Assembly (NCBI GenBank): GCA_963762785.1
Contig: CAVXND010000079.1
Location: 11,638-75,637, forward strand
DNA: 64,000 nucleotides
Reading direction: 5' to 3'
Source of the DNA: an uncultured beta proteobacterium
Lineage (GTDB): Bacteria; Pseudomonadota; Gammaproteobacteria; Burkholderiales; SG8-39
Position numbers and translations under genes: made by a program. The first letter of the stretch is position 1; each line of letters begins with the position of its first letter. Of this stretch, positions 9,395-62,800 are shown piece after piece. The notes beneath the pieces were generated by a model, which was not told where the DNA came from, did not search any database, and saw only the letters and a program-made list of their open reading frames with translations.

Positions 9395-10756
9395 CTAGTG
9401 GATCCCGAGCCGCTCCATCCGGTAGCGGAGGGCGCGGAAGGTGATGCCGAGGAGCTTGGCCGCAGCGGTCCGGTTGAAGCGCGTCTTGTCGAGCGCTTCG
9501 AGGATCGCCTCGCGCTCCACCCGGTCGAGGTACTCCTGGAGCGGCCACTTCGCGTTCGGTGCCTGCGGCTCTTCGGCGATGGTCGGCGGAGCGAGCTGCA
9601 GATCGTCGGGGTGGATCTCGTCCGTTCCCGAGAGCGCGATCGCGCGCTCGAGGACGTTTTCGAGCTCGCGGACGTTGCCCGGGAAGTCGTACGCGGCGAG
9701 CGCCGAGAGCGCCGCGGCGGAGAGCCGTCGGCGCCGGGCACCGCTCTCCTCGCCCAGGCGCGCGAGCACCGCGTCGGCGAGGAGCGGGATGTCCTCCCGG
9801 CATTCGCGCAGGCTCGGCAGGCGCAGCTCGATGACGGCGAGCCGGTAGTAGAGATCCTGGCGGAACTTGCCCGCTTCCACCAGCGCGGGGAGCGACCGGT
9901 GGGTCGCGCAGATGATCCTGACGTCGACCGGATCCTCGGTCGTCGCCCCGACCTTGCGGACCCGCTTCTCCTGAATCGCGCGCAGCAGCTTCACCTGCAT
10001 CGGCAGCGGCAGGTCGCCGACCTCGTCGAGAAACAGCGTCCCGCCGTTCGCGGCATGGAAGAAGCCTTCCCGGTCGGATTCGGCGCCGGTGAAGGCCCCC
10101 TTGCGGTAGCCGAAGAACTCGCTTTCCACCAGGTTCTCGGGGATGGCGCCACAGTTCACCGGCACGAAAGGCTTGTCCCGTCGCGCACCGCCCTCGTGGA
10201 TGAGGCGCGCAGCGAGCTCCTTGCCGCTTCCGGATTCGCCGGTGAGATAGAGCGGCGCCTGGCTGCGGGCGAGCTTCTCGATCATCGAGCGCACCTGCTG
10301 CATGGGCGGGCTGTCGCCGAGCAGCCGGTACGCACCGCCGCCCTCGGGCTTCGGCACCGCCTTCTGCGGCAGGTTGAGCGCCGACTTGACGAGCGTGCGC
10401 AGTTGTTCGAGCGAAAGGGGCTTCGACACGTAGTCGAACGCGCCCGCCTTGAGCGCCGCTACTGCGTTCTCGGTGCTGCCGTGCGCCGTGATCACGGCCA
10501 CCGGAAGGTCCGCGCAGTGCGCGCCGATGTAGCGCACCAGCTCGAGGCCGTCGCCGTCCGGCAGGCGCATGTCGGTGAGGCACAGGTCGAAGCTCATGCG
10601 CTCGAGGAAGCCGGTCGCCTCGGCGACCGAGCCGGCGCATTCGACCCCGAGACCCATCCGGATCAGGGTGAGCTCGAGCAGCTCCCGGATGTCGGCCTCG
10701 TCGTCGACCACGAGCACCGTGGTCTTCGCGGCTGCGCGGCGCTCCGGCCGGTTCAT
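9395..10756 (-). CDS. sigma54-dependent response regulator (NtrC family, PilR-like)
   Basis: Last 453 codons of the fused ORF 9395..12547, from ATG 10756 (ATGA overlap with the kinase stop). Domains: REC ([15 protein letters not shown]...[12 protein letters not shown]), AAA+ ([41 protein letters not shown]) and a C-terminal HTH ([27 protein letters not shown]). Confidence 0.85.
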
Positions 10757-12382
10757 CCCCGTACCCCCTGCCAAGTGATCCGGAAATCGCCGCCCGCCCC
10801 GCGGTCGACGTAGTCGAGCGCGGCGCCGTTCGCCCCGCACAGCTCGCGGGCGATGTACAGGCCGAGGCCGGTGCCCGCGCTGTAGGTCGTGAAGAACGGC
10901 TCGAACAGCTGGCTCTGCAGGTCCTTCGCCACGCCGGGGCCGTCGTCGATGACGTGCAATTCTAGCCGATTGCCCTGCCGCAGCAGGCGCAGACGGACGC
11001 TTCCCGCGCCCTTCAGCGAGTGGCGCCACCCGTTCCGGACGAGGTTCCACAGCACCTGGTGCAGGTGGACGCGGTCGAACTCGACGACGCCGTCGCCGTC
11101 GATCTCGAGCACGAAGCCCTCGCGGGCGACCTGCTCGTTCTGCGCGAACTCGTCCAGGAACGTGTCGAGGAAGGGCGTGAGCCGGATGCGCCTCGGGCTG
11201 CACGCGGTCGCGCCGGTTGAGCTCGAGCACGTCCTTCACCATCCGGTCGAGCCGGCCCGCGTTGTCGCGGATGATCCGGATCAGGCGCTCGCGCGCGGGC
11301 TGCCGGTTTTCCTCGCTCATCAGCTCGGACGCGTGGGTGATCGCCGCCAGCGGGTTGCGGATCTCGTGCGCGATGTTGGCGGTGAGCCGGCCGAGGGCGG
11401 CGAGTTTCAGCTGGCGCGCCTGGTCTTCCAGCTTGGAGATGTCCTCGAGGTAGATCACCGTGAAGCTGTCGTTCCCGACGCCGGCGTCGACGAACCGCGC
11501 GCGCACCACCGTGCCGGTTTCGGGAAGGGTCAGCACCGGTGTCGCCCGCCCGGAGCCCGTGCGCCAATCCGCGAGCGCCTGGGCGAGCTCGACCGAGAAC
11601 GCCTCGATCTGATCGAGCTCGGGCGCCGGCCGCCCGAGCAGCTGCGAGACCCGCGGGTTGTGGCTGCGCACGAGGCCGTTCGAATCCACGACGAGCACGC
11701 CGTCCTGCACGTCCTGGATGACGCGCTGGTTGATCCGGAGCTGATTGGCGAGATCGAGGCCGCGCTGCCGGGCGACGCGCTCGTTGGTGATGACCCGCTG
11801 CGCGAGCTGGTTGGTGACGAGCGCGGTGGCGAAGTAGCCGATCGAGATCATCGCCGGTGGCAGGAAGCCCCCGACGCTCTCGCCGAAAGCGACGACCTCG
11901 ACCGCCTGCTCGACCAGCACCGCGATGGTCGCGAGCGCCGCGTAGAACAGCAGCAGCCGGCCGCGGCTCACGAGCGACGCCGCGGCGATCGAGATCAGCA
12001 GCATCACCGCGAGGCCGCTGCGGAACCCGCCGCTCGCGAACATGAGCAGAACCGTCGCGGCGATGTCGGTGCAGATGTGGGTGGTGAGGTGGGTATCGAA
12101 GCTCCGGGGCGCCCGCTTGAGCGCCACCTGGAACGCGACCGCGGCCGCGAGATACGCCGCGGCGGCGGCCGTGAAGAGCCGCAGGTCGTGGCTGCCGAGG
12201 TTCAGGGCGTCGCCGTAGACGAGCGCCGAGGCGAGGAACAGCGCCGCGATCGCGATCCGGTAGGCGTTGAAGTAGCGAAGCGAGACCCAGAACGAGTCGG
12301 GAACCGCCTGCGGCTCGCGCGGCTCCACCTGCAGGGGATGCGCGCGAAGCGCCGCGAGTTCGGGTGCGGTGGGCTTGTTCAA
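10753..12382 (-). CDS. Sensor histidine kinase, PilS-like (polytopic N-domain, PAS-like, HisKA, HATPase); one apparent +1 shift near 11190
   Basis: A multi-TM N-terminus (YRIAIAALFLASALVYG...) is followed by the H-box LAALGRLTANIAHEIRNPLAAI. After ...NRRDRVQPEA|IRLTPFLDTFLDEF... it continues in ORF 10753..11112 with HQVLWNLVRNGWRH, VIDDGPGV and FEPFFTTYSAGTGLGLYIAREL. The start is tentatively TTG 12382 (TTGA overlap with the upstream stop). Confidence 0.75.
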
Positions 12383-12597
12383 GCGCTGAACAGCCGGCGG
12401 TGCTCGTCGGAGCAGAAGTACCTGCCCCTCGCTTCGACCGCCTCGGAGACCGGCAGGTGCACGCCGCACTGGCTGCAGTCCACCATGCGCTCGCCATCGG
12501 CGGGCGGTTTCCGAGTTGCCTCGCCGTCGCGCCGGAACCCTCGCCACAGGAAGTAAGCGACGAGTCCGACGAGGACGAGGATCAGCAGTTTGCCCAT
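12379..12597 (-). CDS. Small membrane-anchored zinc-ribbon (MYND-like) protein, first gene of the kinase/regulator operon
   Basis: ORF 12379..12597 has the TM helix LLILVLVGLVAYFLW, then CSQCGVHLP...YFCSDEH. From memory, this type of small protein commonly precedes PilS/PilR-like pairs in beta/gammaproteobacteria. Confidence 0.6.
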   Translation of the reverse strand: MGKLLILVLVGLVAYFLWRGFRRDGEATRKPPADGERMVDCSQCGVHLPVSEAVEARGRYFCSDEHRRLFSA

Positions 12598-21168: not shown

Positions 21169-22889
21169 ATGCGGGCTTCGCAGTTCTTCGTCTCGACGCT
21201 CAAGGAAGCGCCGGCCGACGCCGAGATCGTCAGCCACAAGCTGATGCTGCGCGCCGGGCTGATCCGCCGTCTCGCCGGCGGCATCTACACCTGGATGCCG
21301 ATCGGCCTGCGCGTCGTGCGCAAGGTCGAGGCGATCGTCCGCGCGGAGATGAACCGCGCCGGGGCGATCGAGGTCTTCATGCCGGCGATCCAGCCGGCCG
21401 AGCTGTGGCAGGAATCCGGCCGCTGGGACAAGTACGGCCCCGAGCTCCTGCGCCTCAAGGACCGGCACCAGCGCGACTTCTGCGTCGGCCCGACCCACGA
21501 GGAGGTGATCACCGACGTCGCGCGCCGGGAGCTCCAGAGCTACCGGCAGCTGCCGGTGCACTTCTATCAGATCCAGACCAAGTTCCGCGACGAGATCCGG
21601 CCGCGGTTCGGCGTCATGCGCGGCCGCGAATTCACGATGAAGGACGGCTACTCCTTCCACGCCGACTACGCCGACCTCGAGCGCGAGTACCGGAACATGC
21701 ACGACACCTACTCGCGCATCTTCAGCCGGCTCGGCCTCCAGTTCCGCGCGGTTGCGGCGGACACCGGTTCGATCGGCGGCACCGGCTCGCACGAGTTTCA
21801 CGTGCTGGCCGAATCGGGCGAGGACGCGATCGCCTACTGCCCGCAGTCCGACTACGCGGCCAACGTCGAGCTCGCCGAGGCGCTCGCGCCGCCGGCGCCG
21901 CGCGCGGCGCCCGGCGCGGCGATGCAGAAGGTGCCGACCCCGGGCAAGACGCGCTGCGAGGACGTCGCCGCCCTCCTCGGTCTCCCGCTCACGCAGACGG
22001 TGAAGGCGATCGCCGTCATGCACGACGAGGCGTTCAACCTGCTGCTCGTGCGCGGCGATCACGATCTCAACGAGATCAAGGCGCAGAAGCTTCCCGGCCT
22101 CGACCCGTTCCGGTTCGCCACCGACGCCGAGATCGAGCGCCATCTCGGCTGCAAGGCCGGCTACATCGGCCCGGTCGGCATCGATCCGGGGATCCGCGTC
22201 GTCGCCGACCGATCGGTCGCGGCCATGGCGGACTTCGTGTGCGGTGCGAACGAGGAAGGCTATCACCTCACCGGCGTGAATTTCGGCCGCGACCTGCCCG
22301 AACCCGCGCTCGTCGCGGATATCCGCAAGGTCGTGGCGGGCGACCCGAGCCCGGACGGCAAGGGATCGCTCGAGATCGTCCGCGGGATCGAGGTCGGCCA
22401 CATCTTCCAGCTGCGAACGAAGTACTCGACCGCGATGGCAGGCGACTTTCCTCGACGAGCAGGGCAAGCGCCGCCCGTTCGAGATGGGCTGCTACGGCAT
22501 CGGGGTGACCCGCATCGTCGGCGCGGCGATCGAGCAGGGCAACGACGAGCGCGGCATCGTGTGGCCCGACCCGATCGCGCCCTTCCGCTCGCGATCGTGC
22601 CGCTCGGCTACCGCCGCAGCGACGCGGTCCGGCAGACCGCCGACGCGCTGTACAAGCAAGCTTGCCGCTGCGGGCATCGACGTGCTGCTCGATGATCGCG
22701 ACGAGCGCCCCGGCGTCCTCCTCGCCGACTCGGAACTAATTGGCATCCCGCACCGCGTCGTCGTTGGGGATCGCGGGCTCAAGGATGGCAAACTCGAATA
22801 TCAGGGGCGCAGGGACGCGTCCCCGACCGTCAGTGCCGGTCGCCGAGGCAGCCGACTTTCTGACAGCGAGACTGTGCGCCACCTCCTGA
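21169..22889 (+). CDS. proS: Prolyl-tRNA synthetase; four apparent indels (near 22447, 22587, 22660, 22838)
   Basis: ORF 21169.. ([30 protein letters not shown]...) is followed by ...[10 protein letters not shown]|[45 protein letters not shown]|[25 protein letters not shown]|[59 protein letters not shown]|[16 protein letters not shown]. The corrected length of 572 aa equals E. coli ProRS. Confidence 0.85.
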
Positions 22890-23479
22890 CCGCGGGAATC
22901 CTGCTCGCGCTCGCCGCGGCGCCGGGCGCGGCAAGCGCGGGCGCGCAGGAGTACGAACCGCTCTCGGCGAGCGTGCAGGCGGCGATGTCGCGCGCGATCA
23001 GCGACAAGGGCGTACCGCAGCTCAAGTTCGCCCACCCCGAAGACGGGTACAAGTGGCTGCTCGCGATGTCGGACCGGCTCGCGAAGCGCATCCCGGACAC
23101 GCAGTACCGCGTCGAGCTGCTGAAGACGGTGCACTACGAAGCCACCCGCGCCGGCCTGGATCCGCAGCTCGTCCTCGGCATCATCCACGTCGAAAGCGGC
23201 TTCAAGAAGTACGCGGTGTCGAAGGCCGGCGCGCGCGGGCTGATGCAGGTCATGCCCTTCTGGGTCGGGCTGATCGGCGCGAAGGACGACAACCTCTTCC
23301 ACCTGCGGATGAACATCCGCTACGGCTGCGTGATCATGCGCCACTATCTCGACATCGAGAAAGGCGACCTCTACCGCGCGCTCGGCCGCTACAACGGCAG
23401 CCTCGGGCGGCCGGAGTACCCCAACCTCGTCCTGGCCGCCTGGAAGGGCACGTTCAAATACGAGGGGCGATTGGCCTGA
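22874..23479 (+). CDS. Secreted lytic transglycosylase (SLT domain)
   Basis: GTG 22874 lies inside ORF 22484..23479. Signal peptide [22 protein letters not shown]; catalytic region [27 protein letters not shown]. Confidence 0.75.
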
Positions 23480-23490
23480 CCGCGGCGCCT

Positions 23491-24207
23491 TCAGTCGGCA
23501 AAGATCCCGGCGATGGTCGCCTGGATGGCGGCGGCAGCGGCCGCCGGATCCGCCGCCTGGCGGATCGGCCGCCCGACGACGATGTAGTCGGCACCGTTCG
23601 CGAACGCCTGCGCGACATCGACGGTGCGCTTCTGGTCGTCGACCGGCCGGTTCTCGACCGGGCGAATCCCCGGGGTGACGACGAGGATCCGGTCGCCGAG
23701 CTCGCGCTTGAGCATCGGCGCCTCGAGACCCGACGAGATCACGCCGTCGCAGCCCGCCTCGAGCGCGCGGCGCGCGCGCGACAGCACGAGACGGTCGACG
23801 TCGCAGGCGAAGCCGAGATCGTCGAGGTCGCCGCGATCGAGGCTGGTGAGCACCGTGACCGCGAGGATCTTCACGTCGCCCTTCTCCGCGGCGGCCGCTT
23901 CCATCATCTTCTGGTTGCCGTGGACGGTCGCGAGCGCGATCCCGCGTCCGCGCAGCGCCCGCACGGCGCTGCGAACGGTCTCCGGGACGTCGAAGAACTT
24001 GAGGTCGACGAACACGCGCTTGCCGCGCGCGACCAGCCAGTCGACGAGCTCGAAGTAACCGCCGGTCATGAAGAGCTCGAGGCCGAGCTTGTAGAACACC
24101 GCTTCGTCGCCGAGCTTCGCGACGAGCGCGCGCGCATCGCTCACGGACGGCACGTCGAGCGCGACGATCAGCCGCTCGCGGCGCGGAATGCTGCGGGAAT
24201 TTGCCAC
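23491..24207 (-). CDS. pyrF: Orotidine 5'-phosphate decarboxylase
   Basis: ORF 23491..24207 (GTG start) has LIVALDV, FVDLKFFDVPETV and YIVVGRPI motifs. Confidence 0.88.
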   Translation of the reverse strand: MANSRSIPRRERLIVALDVPSVSDARALVAKLGDEAVFYKLGLELFMTGGYFELVDWLVARGKRVFVDLKFFDVPETVRSAVRALRGRGIALATVHGNQKMMEAAAAEKGDVKILAVTVLTSLDRGDLDDLGFACDVDRLVLSRARRALEAGCDGVISSGLEAPMLKRELGDRILVVTPGIRPVENRPVDDQKRTVDVAQAFANGADYIVVGRPIRQAADPAAAAAAIQATIAGIFAD

Positions 24208-24215
24208 AGTTTCTC

Positions 24216-24230
24216 CGGCATGTTCTTTGC
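24216..24230 (+). promoter_or_regulatory. -24/-12 (sigma54-type) promoter
   Basis: cGGCATG-ttct-TTGCg has correct GG-N10-GC spacing and ends 33 nt before ATG 24264. Confidence 0.5.
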
Positions 24231-24263
24231 GTTAATCGGGTTCGCAGGCACCTGACAACCCCG

Positions 24264-25808
24264 ATGATCCTGAATTTTATCTCGGCGACCGGCAGTACCG
24301 ACGAAGACGGCGAGTTCTCCCCGGAGAACCTCCGCGGGTGGCTGTCGTCGCTCTCGGCCGCCGACGCCACCGGCACCGCCCGCGCGCTCATCGACCGCCT
24401 GGTGCAGGTGAACAAGGCGGAGCTGCAGAGCCGGCTGCGGTTGCGGCTGCTCGACATGTTCCGCGACCACATCGACTGGCTCCTGCCCCAGCTCGAGAGC
24501 CGGATCGCCCGCGCGCAGCCGCCGCTCGCCGGGAATCTGCGGCAGGTCGCCTACTTCATCGAGAAGCTCCTGAAGGAGCTTGCGCTCGGCTACTCCCGCG
24601 TCGTCCTGCGCGTGCCGCGGGCGTGGCTGTCGCTCGGCTTCAAGGGCCAGCTCCACGTCCCGCTCACCCGTGCGATGGACTTCCACGCGCGCCGGCTCCA
24701 GCTCAGCCAGCGCCTCTATGCGCGCAACCCGGGCGGCGTCTGGAGCGAGCTGCACCAGCTCTACCAGGTCGCGCGCGACTGGGGGTTCGCCGACCGCGAA
24801 ATCGACGCGCCGCAGACCTCGCCGCTGCGCGTCTACCGCGACGCGCTGCTCCTCGCGTTCGCGCAGCCGACGAAGCTGATGCACGGGGACTTCCTCCGGG
24901 TGCAGGCCTATCTCGCCGCCAACGCCGATCTCGCCGAGCTTTCCGCGGGCGGCAAGGTGGAGGACCCGCTCTGCGTCTTCGCGGTCGATCCGCGCCGCGA
25001 CCGGCCCGGGATTGCCTACGCCAAGCGCGCCGACGCCGGATACGACAACGGCGCGCTCCTGCTGCTCACGCACCGCCTCGTCGAGCGGCTCCAGACCCAG
25101 CTCAAGAAGCTCCACGACGGCGTCGCGCCCGCCACGCTCGGGCTGCCGGAGGAGTCCGCCCGGCTCGCCTACCAGGAGCTGATGCAGCGCCTGATCACGC
25201 ACTGGCGCGGCGAGCGCAAGGCACGCGCCACGCGCATGCGGTTCCATCCGCGGGTCGAGCTGTGGGTCGGCCTGCGCGAGATCTGGCGCGTGCTGCGCGC
25301 CGAATCGCCCCAGGACACGCCCGCCGCCGACATCACCCAGCGCGAGGCCCCGGCACGCGCGAGCGAGTGGATCATCGCCAACGAGAGCTCGCGCGGCTTC
25401 GCGCTCAAATACATGTCCGGCACGCTGCCGCCGATCAACGTCGGCGAGATCGTGGCGATCAAGGGCAAGGACCGCGGGTCGGTCTATGTGTGCCTCGTCC
25501 GGTGGATCCTGTCCAACACGCCCGAGCACTTCGAGCTCGGGTTGCAGCAGCTCGCGCCGGTCGTGGTCCCCGCGGTCTACAAGCCGGCCCAGCCCGAACG
25601 CGTTGCGCCCGAGCCGATCCTGTTCTTCCCCGAGATGCCGGCGCAGAAGCGCGCGCCGGCGGTCGTCGCGCCCCCCAACCGCCTCCGCTCGAACGAGTCG
25701 TTCAGCCTGCGCCATCGTCGCGGGCGCCTCGATCTCCGGGCGAGCCGGGTGATCGAGAAGACGCCGAGCATCGAGCTGATCGAGGTCTTCGCGTCGCAGA
25801 CCGCCTGA
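24264..25808 (+). CDS. Conserved hypothetical protein (514 aa) with a C-terminal PilZ-like domain (first Arg of RxxxR lost); paralogue 1
   Basis: ORF 24201..25808, with the start taken at ATG 24264 (MILNFISATG...) by alignment with the paralogue. The C-terminus reads ...RKARATRMRFHPRVELWVG...WIIANESSRGFALKY...VGEIVAIKGKD. Confidence 0.7.
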   Translation: MILNFISATGSTDEDGEFSPENLRGWLSSLSAADATGTARALIDRLVQVNKAELQSRLRLRLLDMFRDHIDWLLPQLESRIARAQPPLAGNLRQVAYFIEKLLKELALGYSRVVLRVPRAWLSLGFKGQLHVPLTRAMDFHARRLQLSQRLYARNPGGVWSELHQLYQVARDWGFADREIDAPQTSPLRVYRDALLLAFAQPTKLMHGDFLRVQAYLAANADLAELSAGGKVEDPLCVFAVDPRRDRPGIAYAKRADAGYDNGALLLLTHRLVERLQTQLKKLHDGVAPATLGLPEESARLAYQELMQRLITHWRGERKARATRMRFHPRVELWVGLREIWRVLRAESPQDTPAADITQREAPARASEWIIANESSRGFALKYMSGTLPPINVGEIVAIKGKDRGSVYVCLVRWILSNTPEHFELGLQQLAPVVVPAVYKPAQPERVAPEPILFFPEMPAQKRAPAVVAPPNRLRSNESFSLRHRRGRLDLRASRVIEKTPSIELIEVFASQTA

Positions 25809-25827
25809 GCGCGAGCGCCCTCGCGCC

Positions 25828-25847
25828 GGCGTGAACTGGTTCACGCC
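25828..25847. promoter_or_regulatory. Perfect palindrome GGCGTGAAC-tg-GTTCACGCC
   Basis: A 9+9 inverted repeat 20 nt after the stop of paralogue 1 and about 290 nt upstream of the -24/-12 element of paralogue 2. No U-run follows. Confidence 0.4.
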
Positions 25848-26128
25848 GCGACGCTGACGCGGGTGTCGCGAACGTGTCAGGCGTTCGACGACACCTCCGC
25901 ACGTTCCGTTCGCGCGTCCGCACCGCTCGGCGGGCTGCTTGCGTCGCGCGGGACCCGGATGCGATCCTGTGACCGAACGCACGTTCGGACGCTCGGCGAG
26001 CTTCCGGGCAGCGCTTCGAGTCGACGTCACGAGCGCCGTTTCGGCACTTCAGCAGGCCGGAGTCCATTCCGGGAAACGGCAGGGTGTCACGGCCGAAGCC
26101 GCGTCGCGCGGGCGCACCGGCAACTCAG

Positions 26129-26143
26129 TGGCATGGTCCTTGC
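26129..26143 (+). promoter_or_regulatory. -24/-12 (sigma54-type) promoter
   Basis: TGGCATG-gtcc-TTGCg ends 63 nt before ATG 26207. Confidence 0.55.
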
Positions 26144-26206
26144 GACCCCGGGGGCAGGTCCGCACGACGGACGCCGCTCGATAACATCGACTACAGGAGC
26201 CGGAGA

Positions 26207-27715
26207 ATGCCACTGCACTTGACGCTGCCGCAGACCGCCGAGGGCGAGTCGAGGCGATTCGAGCTCGCACCCGAAGAGGTGCCGGGCTGGCTCGCCACGC
26301 TGCCCAAGGACGACCCCCACACCGCGGGGCGCATGATCCTCGAGAAGCTCGCCCCGCTCAATCGCGGGCGGGTCCGGATCACGCTCCGCCAGGACGTCAC
26401 CGAGGGCATCCTCGGCTTCGTCGAGCACCTCCTGCCCCGCCTCGACGCCGCGCTCGCGTCCGGCACGCTGCCGCTCTCGCTGCAGACGCGCAGCTCCGCG
26501 GGGCTGGCGGAAGATCTCCTCACCGAGCTCGCCTACTCTTACAAGCTGCTGCTCGTCGAGCAGTCGCGGCGGCTCTTCGGCTTCGCCTCGAGCGGCCGGG
26601 CGCTGCTCCCGGTGCTGCGCGCCATGCAGATGCTCGCGCAGCGGCTCAAGCTCGGCTACCGGATGTACGCGACCAACCCGAAGTCGGTCTGGTCGGAGCT
26701 CCACGAGCTCTATCAGTTCGGGCTCCGGCGCGGGCTCGCCAACCGGGCGCTGGTCGAAGGCGGCGAGACGCCGCTCTCGGTCTACCGCGGCGCGCTGCTG
26801 CTCGCGTTCGCCGAGCCGCTCAAGCTCATGCAGGGCGACCTCGATCGCGTCGCCGCCTGGCTCGAGCGCTTCGGTCACCAGTCGACGCTCGGCCCGGCCG
26901 GCCAGCAGAAGAGCGGCCAGGGCCTGTTCCTGATCAAGGCGCAGCGCGACGTGCCCGGCTACGCGCTCTCGAAGCGCCACCACCCGGTGCCGCAACCGCA
27001 CGACCTGCTGCTGAACACGCTGCCGCTCGCCGAGCACCTGCTCGACCAGCTCGCGCGGCTGTCGGCGGGCGAAACCGCGGCCGCCGTGGGCCTGCCCGAG
27101 GACGCGGCCGACGCCGCGTTCCGGGACCTGATGGGCCGGCTCGTCAAGCACTGGGGCGCCGTGCCGAACCGCCGCTTCACGCGGTTGCGCACGCACGCGC
27201 GCGTGGAAGTCTGCGTCGGCATCCGCGGCATCTGGGAGTTCCTCAACTCGCGCGGCACGACCAAGCCGAGCGCGGGTGAATGGATGGTCACGAACGAGAG
27301 CCCGCGCGGCTTCGCGCTGATGCACGTCAAGGGGCCGATCGAGCCGATCCGCGTCGGCGAGGTGCTCGGCCTGCGGACGCGCGACAGCCACACCTGCCAC
27401 ATCTGCGTCGTGCGCTGGGTGCTCTCCGACAACCCCGAGCACCTGGAGCTCGGCCTCGAAGAGCTCGCGCCGACCGCGCGGCCGGTGTCGATCCGCAAGA
27501 CCCGCGGCGCGTCGCAGGAGTCGGAGCACGTCCTGCTGCTGCCCGAGGTGCCGTCGCTCAACCAGGCACCGGCGATCCTCGCGCCGCTCTTCCCGCTCGA
27601 CTCGACCTGCGAGCTGTCGCTCGGCGACCTGCAGTCGAAGCTGCGGGTGCGGGCGACGCGGCTGCTGGAGCGGACGGTCAGCGTCCAGCTCGTCCAGTTC
27701 AGCGCCGTCAGCTAA
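26207..27715 (+). CDS. Conserved hypothetical protein (502 aa) with a C-terminal PilZ-like domain (RxxxR...NxSxxG intact); paralogue 2
   Basis: ORF 26084..27715. AGGAG/GGAGA precede ATG 26207 (MPLHLTLPQ...). The C-terminus reads NRRFTRLRTHARVEVCVG...WMVTNESPRGFALMHVKG...VGEVLGLRTRD. Confidence 0.72.
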   Translation: MPLHLTLPQTAEGESRRFELAPEEVPGWLATLPKDDPHTAGRMILEKLAPLNRGRVRITLRQDVTEGILGFVEHLLPRLDAALASGTLPLSLQTRSSAGLAEDLLTELAYSYKLLLVEQSRRLFGFASSGRALLPVLRAMQMLAQRLKLGYRMYATNPKSVWSELHELYQFGLRRGLANRALVEGGETPLSVYRGALLLAFAEPLKLMQGDLDRVAAWLERFGHQSTLGPAGQQKSGQGLFLIKAQRDVPGYALSKRHHPVPQPHDLLLNTLPLAEHLLDQLARLSAGETAAAVGLPEDAADAAFRDLMGRLVKHWGAVPNRRFTRLRTHARVEVCVGIRGIWEFLNSRGTTKPSAGEWMVTNESPRGFALMHVKGPIEPIRVGEVLGLRTRDSHTCHICVVRWVLSDNPEHLELGLEELAPTARPVSIRKTRGASQESEHVLLLPEVPSLNQAPAILAPLFPLDSTCELSLGDLQSKLRVRATRLLERTVSVQLVQFSAVS

Positions 27716-28994
27716 CCGTCCACAGCACTTCCGACCGTGCGGGGCGCCGGGTCCTCCTGGCGCCCCGTACGTTTTGGAGGCGACGTTTTCTCGTCGTTCC
27801 ACGAGCGCCCGTAGCGGCGCGTTGATCGCCCGGCCGGCCCCTGCCGCCGCGCGCTCCATCACGCCGTCGAGCATCGGGTCGCCGCCGTGCCAGCTGCCCG
27901 ACCCGGCGAACACCAGCCGCGTCGTAGACCTGTGCGATCGTGACCTCGTCGGGATCGCAGGCGAGCGTCCACCGGTCGCCCACCACCCGCGCGAGCCAGC
28001 CCGCCGCCGCGAGCTCGTCGAGCAGCCGCTCGCCCGCCTCGCGCGGGACGCGCGCTGCGGCGATCACCTCCCGCGTCCGCAGGGTGCGCGTCTCGCCCTG
28101 CGCGCGCACCAGCACCCGCAGGATCTCGAGCGCGTCCCGGAATTCCGTACCGGGACGCGTCGCCGCCCCGTCACGCAGCACATGCAAGTCGGGAAGTGCG
28201 GCCGCGATCTCCGCACCGAGCAGCGTCACGACCCACGACAGGTAGATCCAGAGCAGGAAGATCGGAACGGTCGCGAAAGCGCCGTAGACAAGCGTATAGC
28301 TCGGCACCTTCGAGATGTAGACGCCGAAGCCGTGCTGCACCAGCGCGAACACGACTGCAGCGACACAGCCGCCGATCGCCGCGTGCCTGACCTCGATCCG
28401 CCGGTTCGGCACGACGAGGTACACGAGCATGAACGCGATAGCGGTGAGCGCGAGCGGCACCAGGCCGAGCAGCAGCGCGGCAGCGCCCGGGATCTGTCTC
28501 GCGTAGCCGAGCGAGGCGCCGACGACGTACGAAGTGGCGGTCAGGCTCGCCCCGATCAGCAGCGGGCCGAGGGTCAGCACGCCCCAGTACACGAGCACGC
28601 GCACGACGACCGGCCGCGGGCGTCGCACGCGCCAGATCGCGTTGAACGCGGTCTCGATGGTCGTCATCAGCATGATCGCGGTCACGCCCAGGAACAGCAC
28701 GCCCACGGCGGTGAGACGCCCGGCGTTGTCGGTGAACTGGTTGATGTAGCGGGTGACCGACTTCGCCAGCGCCGGCGGCAGCATGTTCTCGGCGAAGAAC
28801 GAATCGATGCCCTGCATGAGGTGCTCGAACACGGGGAACGCGGCGATGACGGTCAGCGCGATCGTGATCAGCGGGACGAGCGCGAGCAGCGACGTGTAGG
28901 CGAGGCCGCCGGCGAGACTGAAGCAGCGGTCGCCGGCGAATCGCCGGCCGACGTGGCCGGCGAAGCGGCCGAGGAGCTGGAGGCGAGTGCGCAC
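27708..28994 (-). CDS. YihY/BrkB-family inner membrane protein; C-terminal region unresolved (at least one shift near 27920)
   Basis: ORF 27708..29063 has FSLAGGLAYTSLLALVPLITIAL...TIETAFNAIWRV...VYGAFATVPIFLLWIYLSWVVTLLGAEIAAAL. After ...TIAQVYDA the listed frame turns Arg-rich, whereas another frame reads LVFAGSGSWHGGDPMLDGVMERAAAGAGRAINAPLRALVE. The likely start is GTG 28994 and the true stop is uncertain. Confidence 0.7.
   Translation of the reverse strand: MRTRLQLLGRFAGHVGRRFAGDRCFSLAGGLAYTSLLALVPLITIALTVIAAFPVFEHLMQGIDSFFAENMLPPALAKSVTRYINQFTDNAGRLTAVGVLFLGVTAIMLMTTIETAFNAIWRVRRPRPVVVRVLVYWGVLTLGPLLIGASLTATSYVVGASLGYARQIPGAAALLLGLVPLALTAIAFMLVYLVVPNRRIEVRHAAIGGCVAAVVFALVQHGFGVYISKVPSYTLVYGAFATVPIFLLWIYLSWVVTLLGAEIAAALPDLHVLRDGAATRPGTEFRDALEILRVLVRAQGETRTLRTREVIAAARVPREAGERLLDELAAAGWLARVVGDRWTLACDPDEVTIAQVYDAAGVRRVGQLARRRPDARRRDGARGGRGRPGDQRAATGARGTTRKRRLQNVRGARRTRRPARSEVLWTVS
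27741..27776 (+). terminator. Rho-independent terminator after paralogue 2
   Basis: GGGGCGCC-gggtcctcct-GGCGCCCC (8 bp) is followed by GTACGTTTTGG. Confidence 0.55.
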
Positions 28995-29016: not shown

Positions 29017-30354
<1,338 letters not shown>

Positions 30355-32956: not shown

Positions 32957-34693
<1,737 letters not shown>

Positions 34694-61238: not shown

Positions 61239-61391
61239 GGCCGGGAGTCTACTCCCGCCGCCACGCGCTCATCCAGAACCGTTCCCGTTGGCGCGCCTCG
61301 TTTCCGCATGAAACACCGCACGTCGCGGCACCTTCCGGATGCCGCAAGCGCACAATGAGAAGCGACAACGAGTTATGCCCGCGACCGGCAA

Positions 61392-61406
61392 TGGCACGGT
61401 TAATGC
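61392..61406 (+). promoter_or_regulatory. -24/-12 (sigma54-type) promoter
   Basis: TGGCACG-gtta-aTGCa ends 71 nt before ATG 61478. Confidence 0.5.
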
Positions 61407-61477
61407 ACGACTCTTCCCGATTACGGGGCGGAGAACCCCAGCCTAGCGGCCCGGCGCTGCACACCAAAGGAGGATCC

Positions 61478-62800
61478 ATGGCGAGCGACACCCGACTGCG
61501 TACCCTACCGAAACGAACTCTGCTGTCCGGGGAGGAAGAAGCGAGGCTCGAGTCCGAGGACCGGCGCGCGTTCCTCCGCAAGAGCGCCGCGATGGCGGGC
61601 GGCGCGCTCGCGGTCGGCAGCGTCGCCTCCACCGCCCGCGGGGCGCCGCTGGCGGTGCCCCCGTCGGGGCAGGAGATGGGCCGGCCGATCCCGCCGGCGA
61701 TGTACGGCATGCCCTCGAAGTACGAGGCGCACGTCGCCCGCCGACGCACCGACGTCTTCGTGAACCGGCAGAACTGGTCCGACTGGAGCATGACCCCGCT
61801 CCAGCACCAGTACGGCATCGTCACCCCGAACGGTGTGATCTTCGAGCGCCACCACGCCGGCACGCCGGACATCGATCCGAAGACCCACAAGCTCGTCATC
61901 CACGGCATGGTGCGGCAGCCACTCGTCTTCTCGATGGAAGACCTGATGCGGTACCCGGCCGTGTCCCGGTTCTACTTCCTCGAGTGCTCGGGCAACGGCC
62001 TCGCCAACTGGGTGAACAACAATTCGGTCACCGTCCAGCAGTCGCACGGGCTGCTTTCGGGCGCGCAGTGGACCGGGGTCCCGGTGTCGTGGCTGCTCGA
62101 CGAGGCGGGCGTGCAGCCCGGGGCGAAGTGGATCGCCTTCGAAGGCGCCGACGGCTCGAACCACACGCGCTCGATGCCGATCGAGAAGGTGCTTGACGAC
62201 TGCCTACTCGTGTACGCGTCGAACGGCGAGATGCTGCGGGCCGAGAACGGCTACCCGCTGCGCCTCCTCGTCCCCGGCTGGGAGGGGAACGTCTCGGTCA
62301 AGTGGCTGCGCCGCATCAAGGTGGGCGACCAGCCGTGGCATTTCCGCAGCGAAACGGCGCGCTACACCGACCCGATGCCGCAGGGCAAGTGGCGCCAGTT
62401 CAGCTTCGAGATGGAGTGCAAGTCCGTGATCACCCGTCCCTCGGGCGGGATGAAGCTCGGCGCGCCGGGCTGGTACGAGATCCAGGGCCTCGCCTGGTCG
62501 GGCAACGGCCGCATCACCGCGGTCGACGTCACGCTCGATGGCGGCCGGAACTGGCAGGAGGCAACGCTCGACCAGCCGGTGCTGGACAAGAGTCTGACCG
62601 AGTTCCGCTTCCGGTGGAACTGGAACGGCGGTCCAGCGATGATCGCGAGCCGCGCGGTCGATTCCACAGGCTACGTCCAGCCTACGGCAGCCGACCTCAC
62701 GAAGGTGCGCGCGATCGTCGGCTTCGTGCAGCACCACAACGGCATCCAGCCGTGGGCCGTTGCGGGGAACGGGGAGGTAAGAAATGCGATCGCGGGCTGA
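61478..62800 (+). CDS. Periplasmic molybdopterin sulfite dehydrogenase, SoxC/SorA (sulfite-oxidase) family
   Basis: ORF 61355..62800. AAGGAGGA precedes ATG 61478. Tat signal DRRAFLRKSAAMAGGALAVG, Mo-ligand Cys motif YFLECSGNG, and a C-terminal dimerisation domain. Confidence 0.78.
   Translation: MASDTRLRTLPKRTLLSGEEEARLESEDRRAFLRKSAAMAGGALAVGSVASTARGAPLAVPPSGQEMGRPIPPAMYGMPSKYEAHVARRRTDVFVNRQNWSDWSMTPLQHQYGIVTPNGVIFERHHAGTPDIDPKTHKLVIHGMVRQPLVFSMEDLMRYPAVSRFYFLECSGNGLANWVNNNSVTVQQSHGLLSGAQWTGVPVSWLLDEAGVQPGAKWIAFEGADGSNHTRSMPIEKVLDDCLLVYASNGEMLRAENGYPLRLLVPGWEGNVSVKWLRRIKVGDQPWHFRSETARYTDPMPQGKWRQFSFEMECKSVITRPSGGMKLGAPGWYEIQGLAWSGNGRITAVDVTLDGGRNWQEATLDQPVLDKSLTEFRFRWNWNGGPAMIASRAVDSTGYVQPTAADLTKVRAIVGFVQHHNGIQPWAVAGNGEVRNAIAG

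Follow-up and report, generated by a model that had tools for sequence, protein, structure and literature searches.

The 64,000-nucleotide stretch analysed here, which we call the window, covers positions 11,638 to 75,637 of the forward strand of contig CAVXND010000079.1 (assembly GCA_963762785.1), from an uncultured beta proteobacterium of the Burkholderiales lineage SG8-39. It holds two adjacent genes on the same strand, here named copy 1 and copy 2, each coding for a protein of about 500 residues (Table 1). The two proteins are paralogous along their whole length, as recognised in a preliminary description made from the sequence, with 37% identity across 494 residues (BLASTP, E 4e-103). Both open reading frames (ORFs) are also free of insertions and deletions (indels), as that description had it, though the frames of proS, wrbA, pilS and ilvC-psd are broken or fused in the same window. 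Together with the retention of the pair in related genomes, described below, these observations mark both genes as real, conserved paralogues. We consider it probable that both encode cytoplasmic receptors of cyclic di-GMP (c-di-GMP) belonging to the FimW family, with copy 2 canonical and copy 1 diverged, and that each has a sigma-54 promoter.

Table 1. Features of the tandem gene pair and of related elements (positions are those of the window; residue numbers refer to copy 2; aa, amino acids)
Feature	Position	Strand	Description
Copy 1	24264-25808	+	ORF, 514 aa; FimW-family paralogue, faster-evolving; helical FimW_N and diverged PilZ-like C-terminal region
Copy 2	26207-27715	+	ORF, 502 aa; FimW-family protein, conservative copy; FimW_N at about residues 20-317, PilZ-like FimW_C at about 318-500
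Copy-1 -24/-12 box, CGGCATGTTCTTTGCG	24216-24231	+	ends 33 nt before the ATG; 9 nt from the divergent pyrF start codon
Copy-2 -24/-12 box, TGGCATGGTCCTTGCG	26129-26144	+	ends 63 nt before the ATG
Copy 1, ARATR	25221-25235	+	aligned to the family RxxxR; first Arg replaced, aromatic F324 changed to Ala
Copy 1, NESSRG	25380-25397	+	(D/N)xSxxG, intact
Copy 2, RRFTR	27170-27184	+	family RxxxR (R322, R326); residues 322-326, in coil 318-331 before the first barrel strand (332-337)
Copy 2, NESPRG	27293-27310	+	(D/N)xSxxG; residues 363-368, turn between strands 358-365 and 368-375
Perfect palindrome, GGCGTGAAC-TG-GTTCACGCC	25828-25847		CGTGA-N6-TCACG; 20 nt past the copy-1 stop codon
CRP/FNR-type palindrome, TGTGACCGAACGCACG	25968-25983		TGTGA-N6-TCACA, matching at 8/10 positions; its centre lies 153 nt ahead of the -24 box of copy 2
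pilS-pilR	9395-12547	-	sensor kinase and sigma-54 enhancer-binding response regulator; Pfam 6TM_PilS, HisKA, Response_reg, Sigma54_activat, AAA_lid_14, HTH_8

The preliminary description presented the pair as an undescribed signalling unit that could not be named, with an N-terminal region that fitted no family, and neither of these two views holds. Local Pfam-A and NCBIfam libraries, in which the recent FimW models are not included, gave no match for either window protein, and the family assignment was made through precomputed Pfam matches on their near-identical orthologues. An orthologue 97% identical to copy 2 (P0001) carries both PF27104 (FimW_N) and PF27125 (FimW_C), and one 96% identical to copy 1 (P0121) carries PF27104; across the set, FimW_N or FimW_C is found on orthologues 85-97% identical to the window proteins, and PF27104 on essentially all homologues. 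Two protein fragments locate the domains: P0114, which aligns to query residues 1-273, carries PF27104 only, identifying FimW_N as the N-terminal helical part, and P0110 (locus L033), which aligns to residues 196-501, carries PF27125 only, identifying FimW_C as the C-terminal part. FimW_C is listed for the copy-2 orthologues P0001-P0073. The copy-1 orthologues mostly carry PF27104 alone, a few having PF27125 as well; the C-terminal region of copy 1 is homologous to that of copy 2, and appears to have diverged below the threshold of the FimW_C profile.

The family is large: a search with a profile built from 97 homologues, run on clusters at 50% identity, recovered 5285 of them at E <= 1e-3, of which 2226 also passed E <= 1e-30. 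Cluster members are named either "hypothetical protein" or "cyclic-di-GMP-binding protein", the latter being the Joint Genome Institute (JGI) label on several orthologues of both copies. One member comes from a cultured organism, Pseudomonas flavescens (P0465, 600 aa); it carries FimW_N and FimW_C and has the UniRef name "Molecular chaperone". Both window proteins align with it end to end in BLASTP (copy 2 over residues 19-498, with 22% identity and E 1e-25; copy 1 with E 1e-23). The P. flavescens gene (locus L049, 7001-8803) stands in the order motA-motB-HDOD-rhodanese-psd-P0465-PAS/GGDEF/EAL (687 aa)-serB, which we take to be the order of P. aeruginosa PA4953-PA4960, where PA4958 (fimW) adjoins PA4959 (fimX). 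Since orthologues of the window proteins carry FimW_N and FimW_C, and since the alignment with this positional orthologue from Pseudomonas spans the full length, the module is not unnamed, and both genes can be assigned by homology to an already catalogued family.

P. aeruginosa FimW (PA4958) has the same two-domain architecture and the same Pfam families as are found on the near-identical orthologues of the window proteins, and the Pseudomonas protein P0465 shares with the window proteins a WGxxxxRxFxR loop, an NxSxxG turn and a VVRW strand. The window proteins differ in being about 100 residues shorter and in lacking the long insertion inside the barrel of the Pseudomonas protein. In P0465 this insertion comprises about 90 residues and separates the first strand/helix of the PilZ-like barrel from its NxSxxG strand, and copy 1 has a 12-residue insertion (SPQDTPAADITQ...) at the same place; this barrel loop is evidently a hot spot of length variation in the FimW family. 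The setting differs as well: whereas the Pseudomonas gene adjoins a FimX-like GGDEF-EAL gene and lacks sigma-54 boxes, the window genes lie between pyrF and yihY/wrbA, form a tandem pair in which, unlike in Pseudomonas FimW, one copy is without R322 and F324, and stand behind sigma-54 boxes.

The predicted structures agree with this domain division. The full-length AlphaFold (AF2) model of copy 2 (predicted local distance difference test score, pLDDT, 88.4; predicted template modelling score, pTM, 0.89) is helical up to about residue 317, save for a few short strands in 227-270, which bears out the helical N-terminal region proposed earlier, and continues with a beta region at 332-500. A separate model of the last 210 residues of copy 1 reached a pLDDT of 82.7. 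When these models were compared with the PDB using Foldseek, the top 8 matches of the copy-1 C-terminal model were all PilZ receptors, as were 6 of the 10 top matches of the full-length copy-2 model, the top ones including MrkH, VCA0042, BcsA and MotI. The best match was VCA0042/PlzD (probability 1.00, E 3e-3), others being MrkH, PlzA, MotI, PP4397 and YcgR-PilZ, and the PilZ domain of BcsA superposed at a root-mean-square deviation of 3.0 Å over 105 columns. The same search gave no informative structural match for the helical N-terminal domain.

In the models the C-terminal regions share the beta-barrel fold class of the canonical PilZ receptors (YcgR, PlzD/VCA0042, MrkH, PlzA, MotI, BcsA and Alg44; PF07238), and resemble them also in where the motifs are placed, RxxxR lying in the loop that leads into strand 1 and (D/N)xSxxG at the turn between strands 2 and 3. 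They depart from the canonical receptors in an extra helix after strand 1 (338-347), in an RxxxR that sits 6 residues farther from strand 1 than expected, and in the order of the domains, the barrel being followed, not preceded, by a second beta domain. Moreover, the barrel of the window proteins is joined to a large helical domain that has no structural match. The PilZ-type character of the C-terminal region, as claimed in the preliminary description, is therefore moderately supported by predicted fold and motifs.

In canonical PilZ domains, RxxxR and (D/N)xSxxG are the motifs that contact c-di-GMP. Both are present in copy 2, as had been reported, and their conservation was assessed across 130 family representatives (50% clustering; copy-2 numbering throughout). 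Arg is found at position 322 in 127 and at position 326 in 129 of these, identifying R322 and R326 as the RxxxR of the family; N or D occupies position 363 in 129, S position 365 in 123 and G position 368 in 129. High conservation is also seen at position 403 (R, 126/130) and at the aromatic position 324 (F, H or Y, 116/130). We also considered a second RxxxR (R328-THA-R332; RFHPR in copy 1), which directly adjoins strand 1 and is complete in copy 1 and copy 2 alike. Had this been the true motif, the description of copy 1 as degenerate would have been wrong, but the alignment of the 130 representatives decided for R322/R326, R328 being present in only 45 and R332 in 54, and the second motif was rejected.

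In copy 1 (D/N)xSxxG is preserved but RxxxR is without its first Arg, just as the preliminary description stated, and this loss extends throughout its lineage. In the copy-2 lineage R322 is present in 52 of 53 sequences and R326 in all 53. The 44 sequences of the copy-1 lineage vary at position 322, where K, A, S, Q, N and P are the six most frequent residues and Arg is not among them, and have S, A or T in place of F324. At the same time R323, R326, F329, P331, R332 and G318 are invariant (44/44). To judge from these alignments, the loss of the first Arg in copy 1 is real, old and lineage-wide, and since it comes with newly fixed residues, the RxxxR loop of copy 1 looks rebuilt rather than decayed.

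Several PilZ proteins without a complete motif are known as adaptors, among them P. aeruginosa PilZ (PA2960) and Xanthomonas XAC1133/XC1028, which binds FimX and PilB. Copy 1 is like these degenerate adaptors in that it appears to keep the fold without a complete RxxxR and belongs to a family linked to type IV pili. Unlike them, it retains (D/N)xSxxG as well as the second Arg, next to which an invariant Arg (R323) has been acquired in the loop, and for this reason its ligand binding may be altered rather than lost.

To trace the history of the pair, species-representative genomes were scanned and 34 loci were found, all from uncultured Burkholderiales or other betaproteobacteria; the window itself shares about 99% identity with MFD02242.bin.1.340. 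About 25 of the 34 loci (species-level genomes) have the tandem pair, which answers in the affirmative the question, raised earlier, of its conservation in related genomes. The single-copy loci (L005-7, L029, L030, L034 and, in Azonexaceae, L037-41) have a copy-2-like gene. Neighbour-joining groups copy 2 with the nearer single-copy genes and places the copy-1 clade as the sister of this group; the topologies of the two clades are mirrored, which indicates one old duplication followed by vertical co-inheritance without gene conversion, with later loss of copy 1 in some lineages. Ratios of non-synonymous to synonymous substitution rates (dN/dS, Nei-Gojobori) ranged from 0.04 to 0.19 in copy 2 and from 0.06 to 0.41 in copy 1. 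By this estimate both copies are under purifying selection, copy 1 evolving 2-4 times faster.

Each gene is preceded by a sequence resembling a -24/-12 promoter, at the distances given in the preliminary description (Table 1). In the window these boxes match 8 (copy 1) and 9 (copy 2) of the 11 specified positions of the consensus TGGCAY-N5-TTGCW (GG-N10-GC). Among the orthologous loci, all tandem pairs have the box before both genes, and the single-copy loci L029 and L030 have it too, always on the coding strand and 46-143 nt ahead of the start codon; many of these boxes are perfect (11/11). The copy-2 box often reads as a perfect TGGCAC-N5-TTGCA, and the copy-1 orthologues have GG-N10-GC with TTGC upstream in all aligned loci. 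Besides the ribosome-binding region, the box is the only conserved block in the otherwise unalignable intergenic regions of both copies. No such box was found upstream of the homologues in Azonexaceae, in other betaproteobacterial contexts or in Pseudomonas, and because it is absent from these more distant homologues, sigma-54 control appears to be a lineage-specific acquisition that predates or accompanied the duplication.

A further element, a palindrome of the CRP/FNR type (TGTGACCGAACGCACG), precedes the copy-2 box. In about 20 of 25 loci a palindrome of this type (at least 8/10 matches) precedes the copy-2 box by no more than about 160 nt, the distance being mostly 80-150 nt and, in L026 and L036, 37-38 nt; a shuffled 300-nt sequence would contain such a match with a probability of 0.036. 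This palindrome is a candidate site for an upstream activator or co-regulator of copy 2. No equivalent N6 palindrome was found for copy 1. Shortly after the copy-1 stop codon there is a perfect palindrome, also of the CRP/FNR type (GGCGTGAAC-TG-GTTCACGCC), and many loci have a similar one 245-291 nt ahead of the copy-2 box; this could be a protein-binding site or a hairpin, its predicted RNA fold being unexceptional (z = -1.65). No T-tract-type terminator was found between the two genes. In the 5' leader of copy 2 (26172-26200) there is a CA-rich box (C-A/T-ACAACA-C/T), conserved in most orthologues and separated by about 10-25 nt from the AGGAG ribosome-binding site that follows, which may serve as a site of post-transcriptional control.

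Given a sigma-54 promoter of its own, each gene would need an enhancer-binding activator. About 12 kb from the pair, pilS-pilR reads as one ORF of 1050 aa, in which the stretch expected to hold the ATPase domain of the kinase is Arg-rich and out of frame, a sign of indels. In general pilS-pilR is the sigma-54 activator pair for pilin expression, and, as FimW is linked to pili, PilR is the natural candidate activator of both promoters. Repeats of TGTC, the core of the PilR site, gave no consistent pattern upstream of the promoters.

Three other explanations were weighed against the receptor reading. Copy 1 might be a decaying duplicate, bound to become a pseudogene and without a function of its own, in which the Arg loss reflects relaxed constraint; its higher non-synonymous rate would fit this, as would the placing of most of its orthologues below the FimW_C threshold in the precomputed Pfam matches and the retention of only the copy-2 type in several lineages. 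Yet the gene is intact in the window despite the broken neighbouring frames, it has been kept in tandem in about 25 species-level genomes with dN/dS well under 1 and with its own conserved -24/-12 box, and the six residues fixed in 44/44 of its lineage speak for new constraint and not for loss, all of which makes decay very improbable. Alternatively, the PilZ-like fold may not bind c-di-GMP in this family at all, the proteins acting only as protein-protein adaptors, for which the original PilZ protein PA2960 provides the model, and the label "cyclic-di-GMP-binding" being an annotation transfer. Several points weigh against our interpretation. The PF07238 (PilZ) profile, against which the preliminary description had proposed to scan the proteins, gave no match up to E 1 for either of them and matched 1 of 97 family members (E 0.075). 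An hhalign comparison of the C-terminal alignment with E. coli YcgR was likewise negative (probability 0.1), which together with the PF07238 result sets the family apart from the canonical PilZ receptors. Sequence searches of the PDB with phmmer, hmmsearch and the family profile gave no real match, the best being chance hits to MarR and YejM (E 0.08 or worse), and the profile found no chain. Foldseek scores were weak (E 3e-3 to 5e-2, whole-chain TM-scores of about 0.25-0.3), and a helix follows the first strand at the point where the Pseudomonas protein has its long insertion. Because the PF07238 scan was negative, the C-terminal domain is PilZ-like by fold and motifs and not by profile, and the argument for the fold lies in the motifs and in the consistency with which Foldseek returned PilZ proteins. 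Against a domain that does not bind, the canonical contact residues R322, R326, N/D363, S365 and G368 are the most conserved positions of the family, a pattern hard to explain without a ligand, and FimW was reportedly first identified as a c-di-GMP-binding protein. On balance we regard a non-binding family as unlikely.

The -24/-12 sequences might also be look-alikes, GGCAYG...TTGC being instead a repressor operator or an RNA element, with both genes transcribed by sigma-70. The consensus is not enriched in the window, where 2 matches with one mismatch compare with 1.24 expected; the copy-1 box begins with CGG in place of TGG; and the box is missing from the more distant homologues, Pseudomonas included. 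Since the window by itself holds no more matches than chance would give, it is the preservation of the boxes in orthologous loci that lends them weight, and there GG and GC at an exact 10-nt spacing, with TTGC, are invariant across loci whose flanks cannot be aligned, many loci having a perfect TGGCAC-N5-TTGCA/T, and the boxes precede the start codons of both paralogues by 46-143 nt on the coding strand. A search of 24000-28000 revealed no sigma-70-like promoter, and the gene of a sigma-54 activator, pilR, is present in the window; we therefore think it distinctly unlikely that the boxes are not promoters. A pilus role for the receptors is the part to which the remaining adverse points apply. 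FimW is reported to bind c-di-GMP, to move to the poles and to promote type IV pilus assembly upon surface contact, and to our knowledge FimW-type proteins have been studied only in Pseudomonas. With only 22-25% identity between the window proteins and the Pseudomonas orthologue, the pilus function may not transfer. When pilus and c-di-GMP genes were sought around the homologues in betaproteobacterial loci, only housekeeping neighbours were found (pyrF, yihY, wrbA, leuA, trxA-rho), so that the neighbourhood is uninformative on function in these bacteria.

Taking the FimW-family receptor reading as a whole, each protein would consist of a FimW_N domain of about 300 residues, all helical, followed by a divergent PilZ-type beta-barrel, FimW_C, in which c-di-GMP would be clamped by the Arg-rich RxxxR loop and the (N/D)xSxxG turn. 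If the proteins behave as FimW does in P. aeruginosa, ligand binding would then switch their localisation or their choice of partners and thereby promote the assembly of type IV pili at the pole. Copy 2, with all motifs intact, would be the conservative orthologue. Copy 1 would be an old tandem duplicate kept by purifying selection, whose RxxxR loop is now without its first Arg and its aromatic residue; most likely its binding of c-di-GMP is weak or of a different kind, or else it serves copy 2 as a partner or modulator. Transcription of each gene in this Burkholderiales lineage would start from a sigma-54 promoter of its own, PilR being the obvious candidate activator, and copy 2 would have the conserved CRP-type palindrome in addition.

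The wider surroundings of the pair consist of housekeeping genes, with rppH, proS, slt and pyrF on one flank and yihY, wrbA, leuA, pssA, psd and ilvCHI on the other. Some of their frames are disturbed: the end of proS (21169-23479, +) is out of frame, its C-terminus continuing in an ORF fused to the lytic transglycosylase; wrbA (29065-30354, +) drifts out of frame and is fused with the next gene; and ilvC and psd (32957-34621, -) are fused in one ORF of 554 aa. These broken frames look like indel errors of long-read metagenome assembly rather than pseudogenes. The only other match to TGGCAY-N5-TTGCW with one mismatch in the window (TGGCACGGTTAATGCA, 61392-61407, +) lies just inside the start of an ORF for a molybdopterin oxidoreductase (sulfite-oxidase-like; 61355-62800), and is probably a chance match. 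Elsewhere among betaproteobacterial metagenome contigs, a single FimW-family gene lies between a gene for an AhpC/TSA-type peroxiredoxin and trxA-rho-rpmE (L043, L044 and L048), and in L045 and L046 such a gene lies between purU and wrbA. Outside Pseudomonas, in the loci examined, FimW-family genes are thus repeatedly found amid housekeeping genes and never adjoining pilus genes.

The two genes are ordinary members of a known family, distinguished by a lineage-specific duplication and regulation, and we see the finding as incremental and worth a note; it does not overturn current understanding. What looks new is the old tandem duplication in which one copy has a changed binding motif and each copy has a sigma-54 promoter before it, and we know of no description of a conserved tandem pair combining one rebuilt c-di-GMP loop with lineage-specific sigma-54 (plus CRP-type) control. 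FimW-type proteins are widespread, with more than 5000 clusters at 50% identity, and the conserved core of the family is a PilZ-like site, RxxxR with (N/D)xSxxG, that the standard PilZ profile does not see. Since the profile misses this core, surveys of c-di-GMP receptors that rely on PF07238 undercount the FimW type.

The tandem pair with its one rebuilt loop provides a natural experiment on how receptors diverge after duplication, and the conserved sigma-54 boxes make a concrete, testable prediction on the regulation of both genes. A more far-reaching interpretation, which we put forward tentatively and hold to be possible though rather doubtful, is that FimW has here been split into a two-protein module, composed of a canonical c-di-GMP-binding copy and an old partner with a rebuilt loop (R322/F324 lost, R323 fixed). 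The two would work jointly, for example as a heteromer, or as receptors that differ in the c-di-GMP level they respond to or of which one senses another nucleotide, and both would belong to the sigma-54/PilR pilus regulon, with a CRP-type input on copy 2. If true, this would mean that in this lineage second-messenger sensing is coupled to the transcriptional control of pili, which is not described for the FimW of Pseudomonas.

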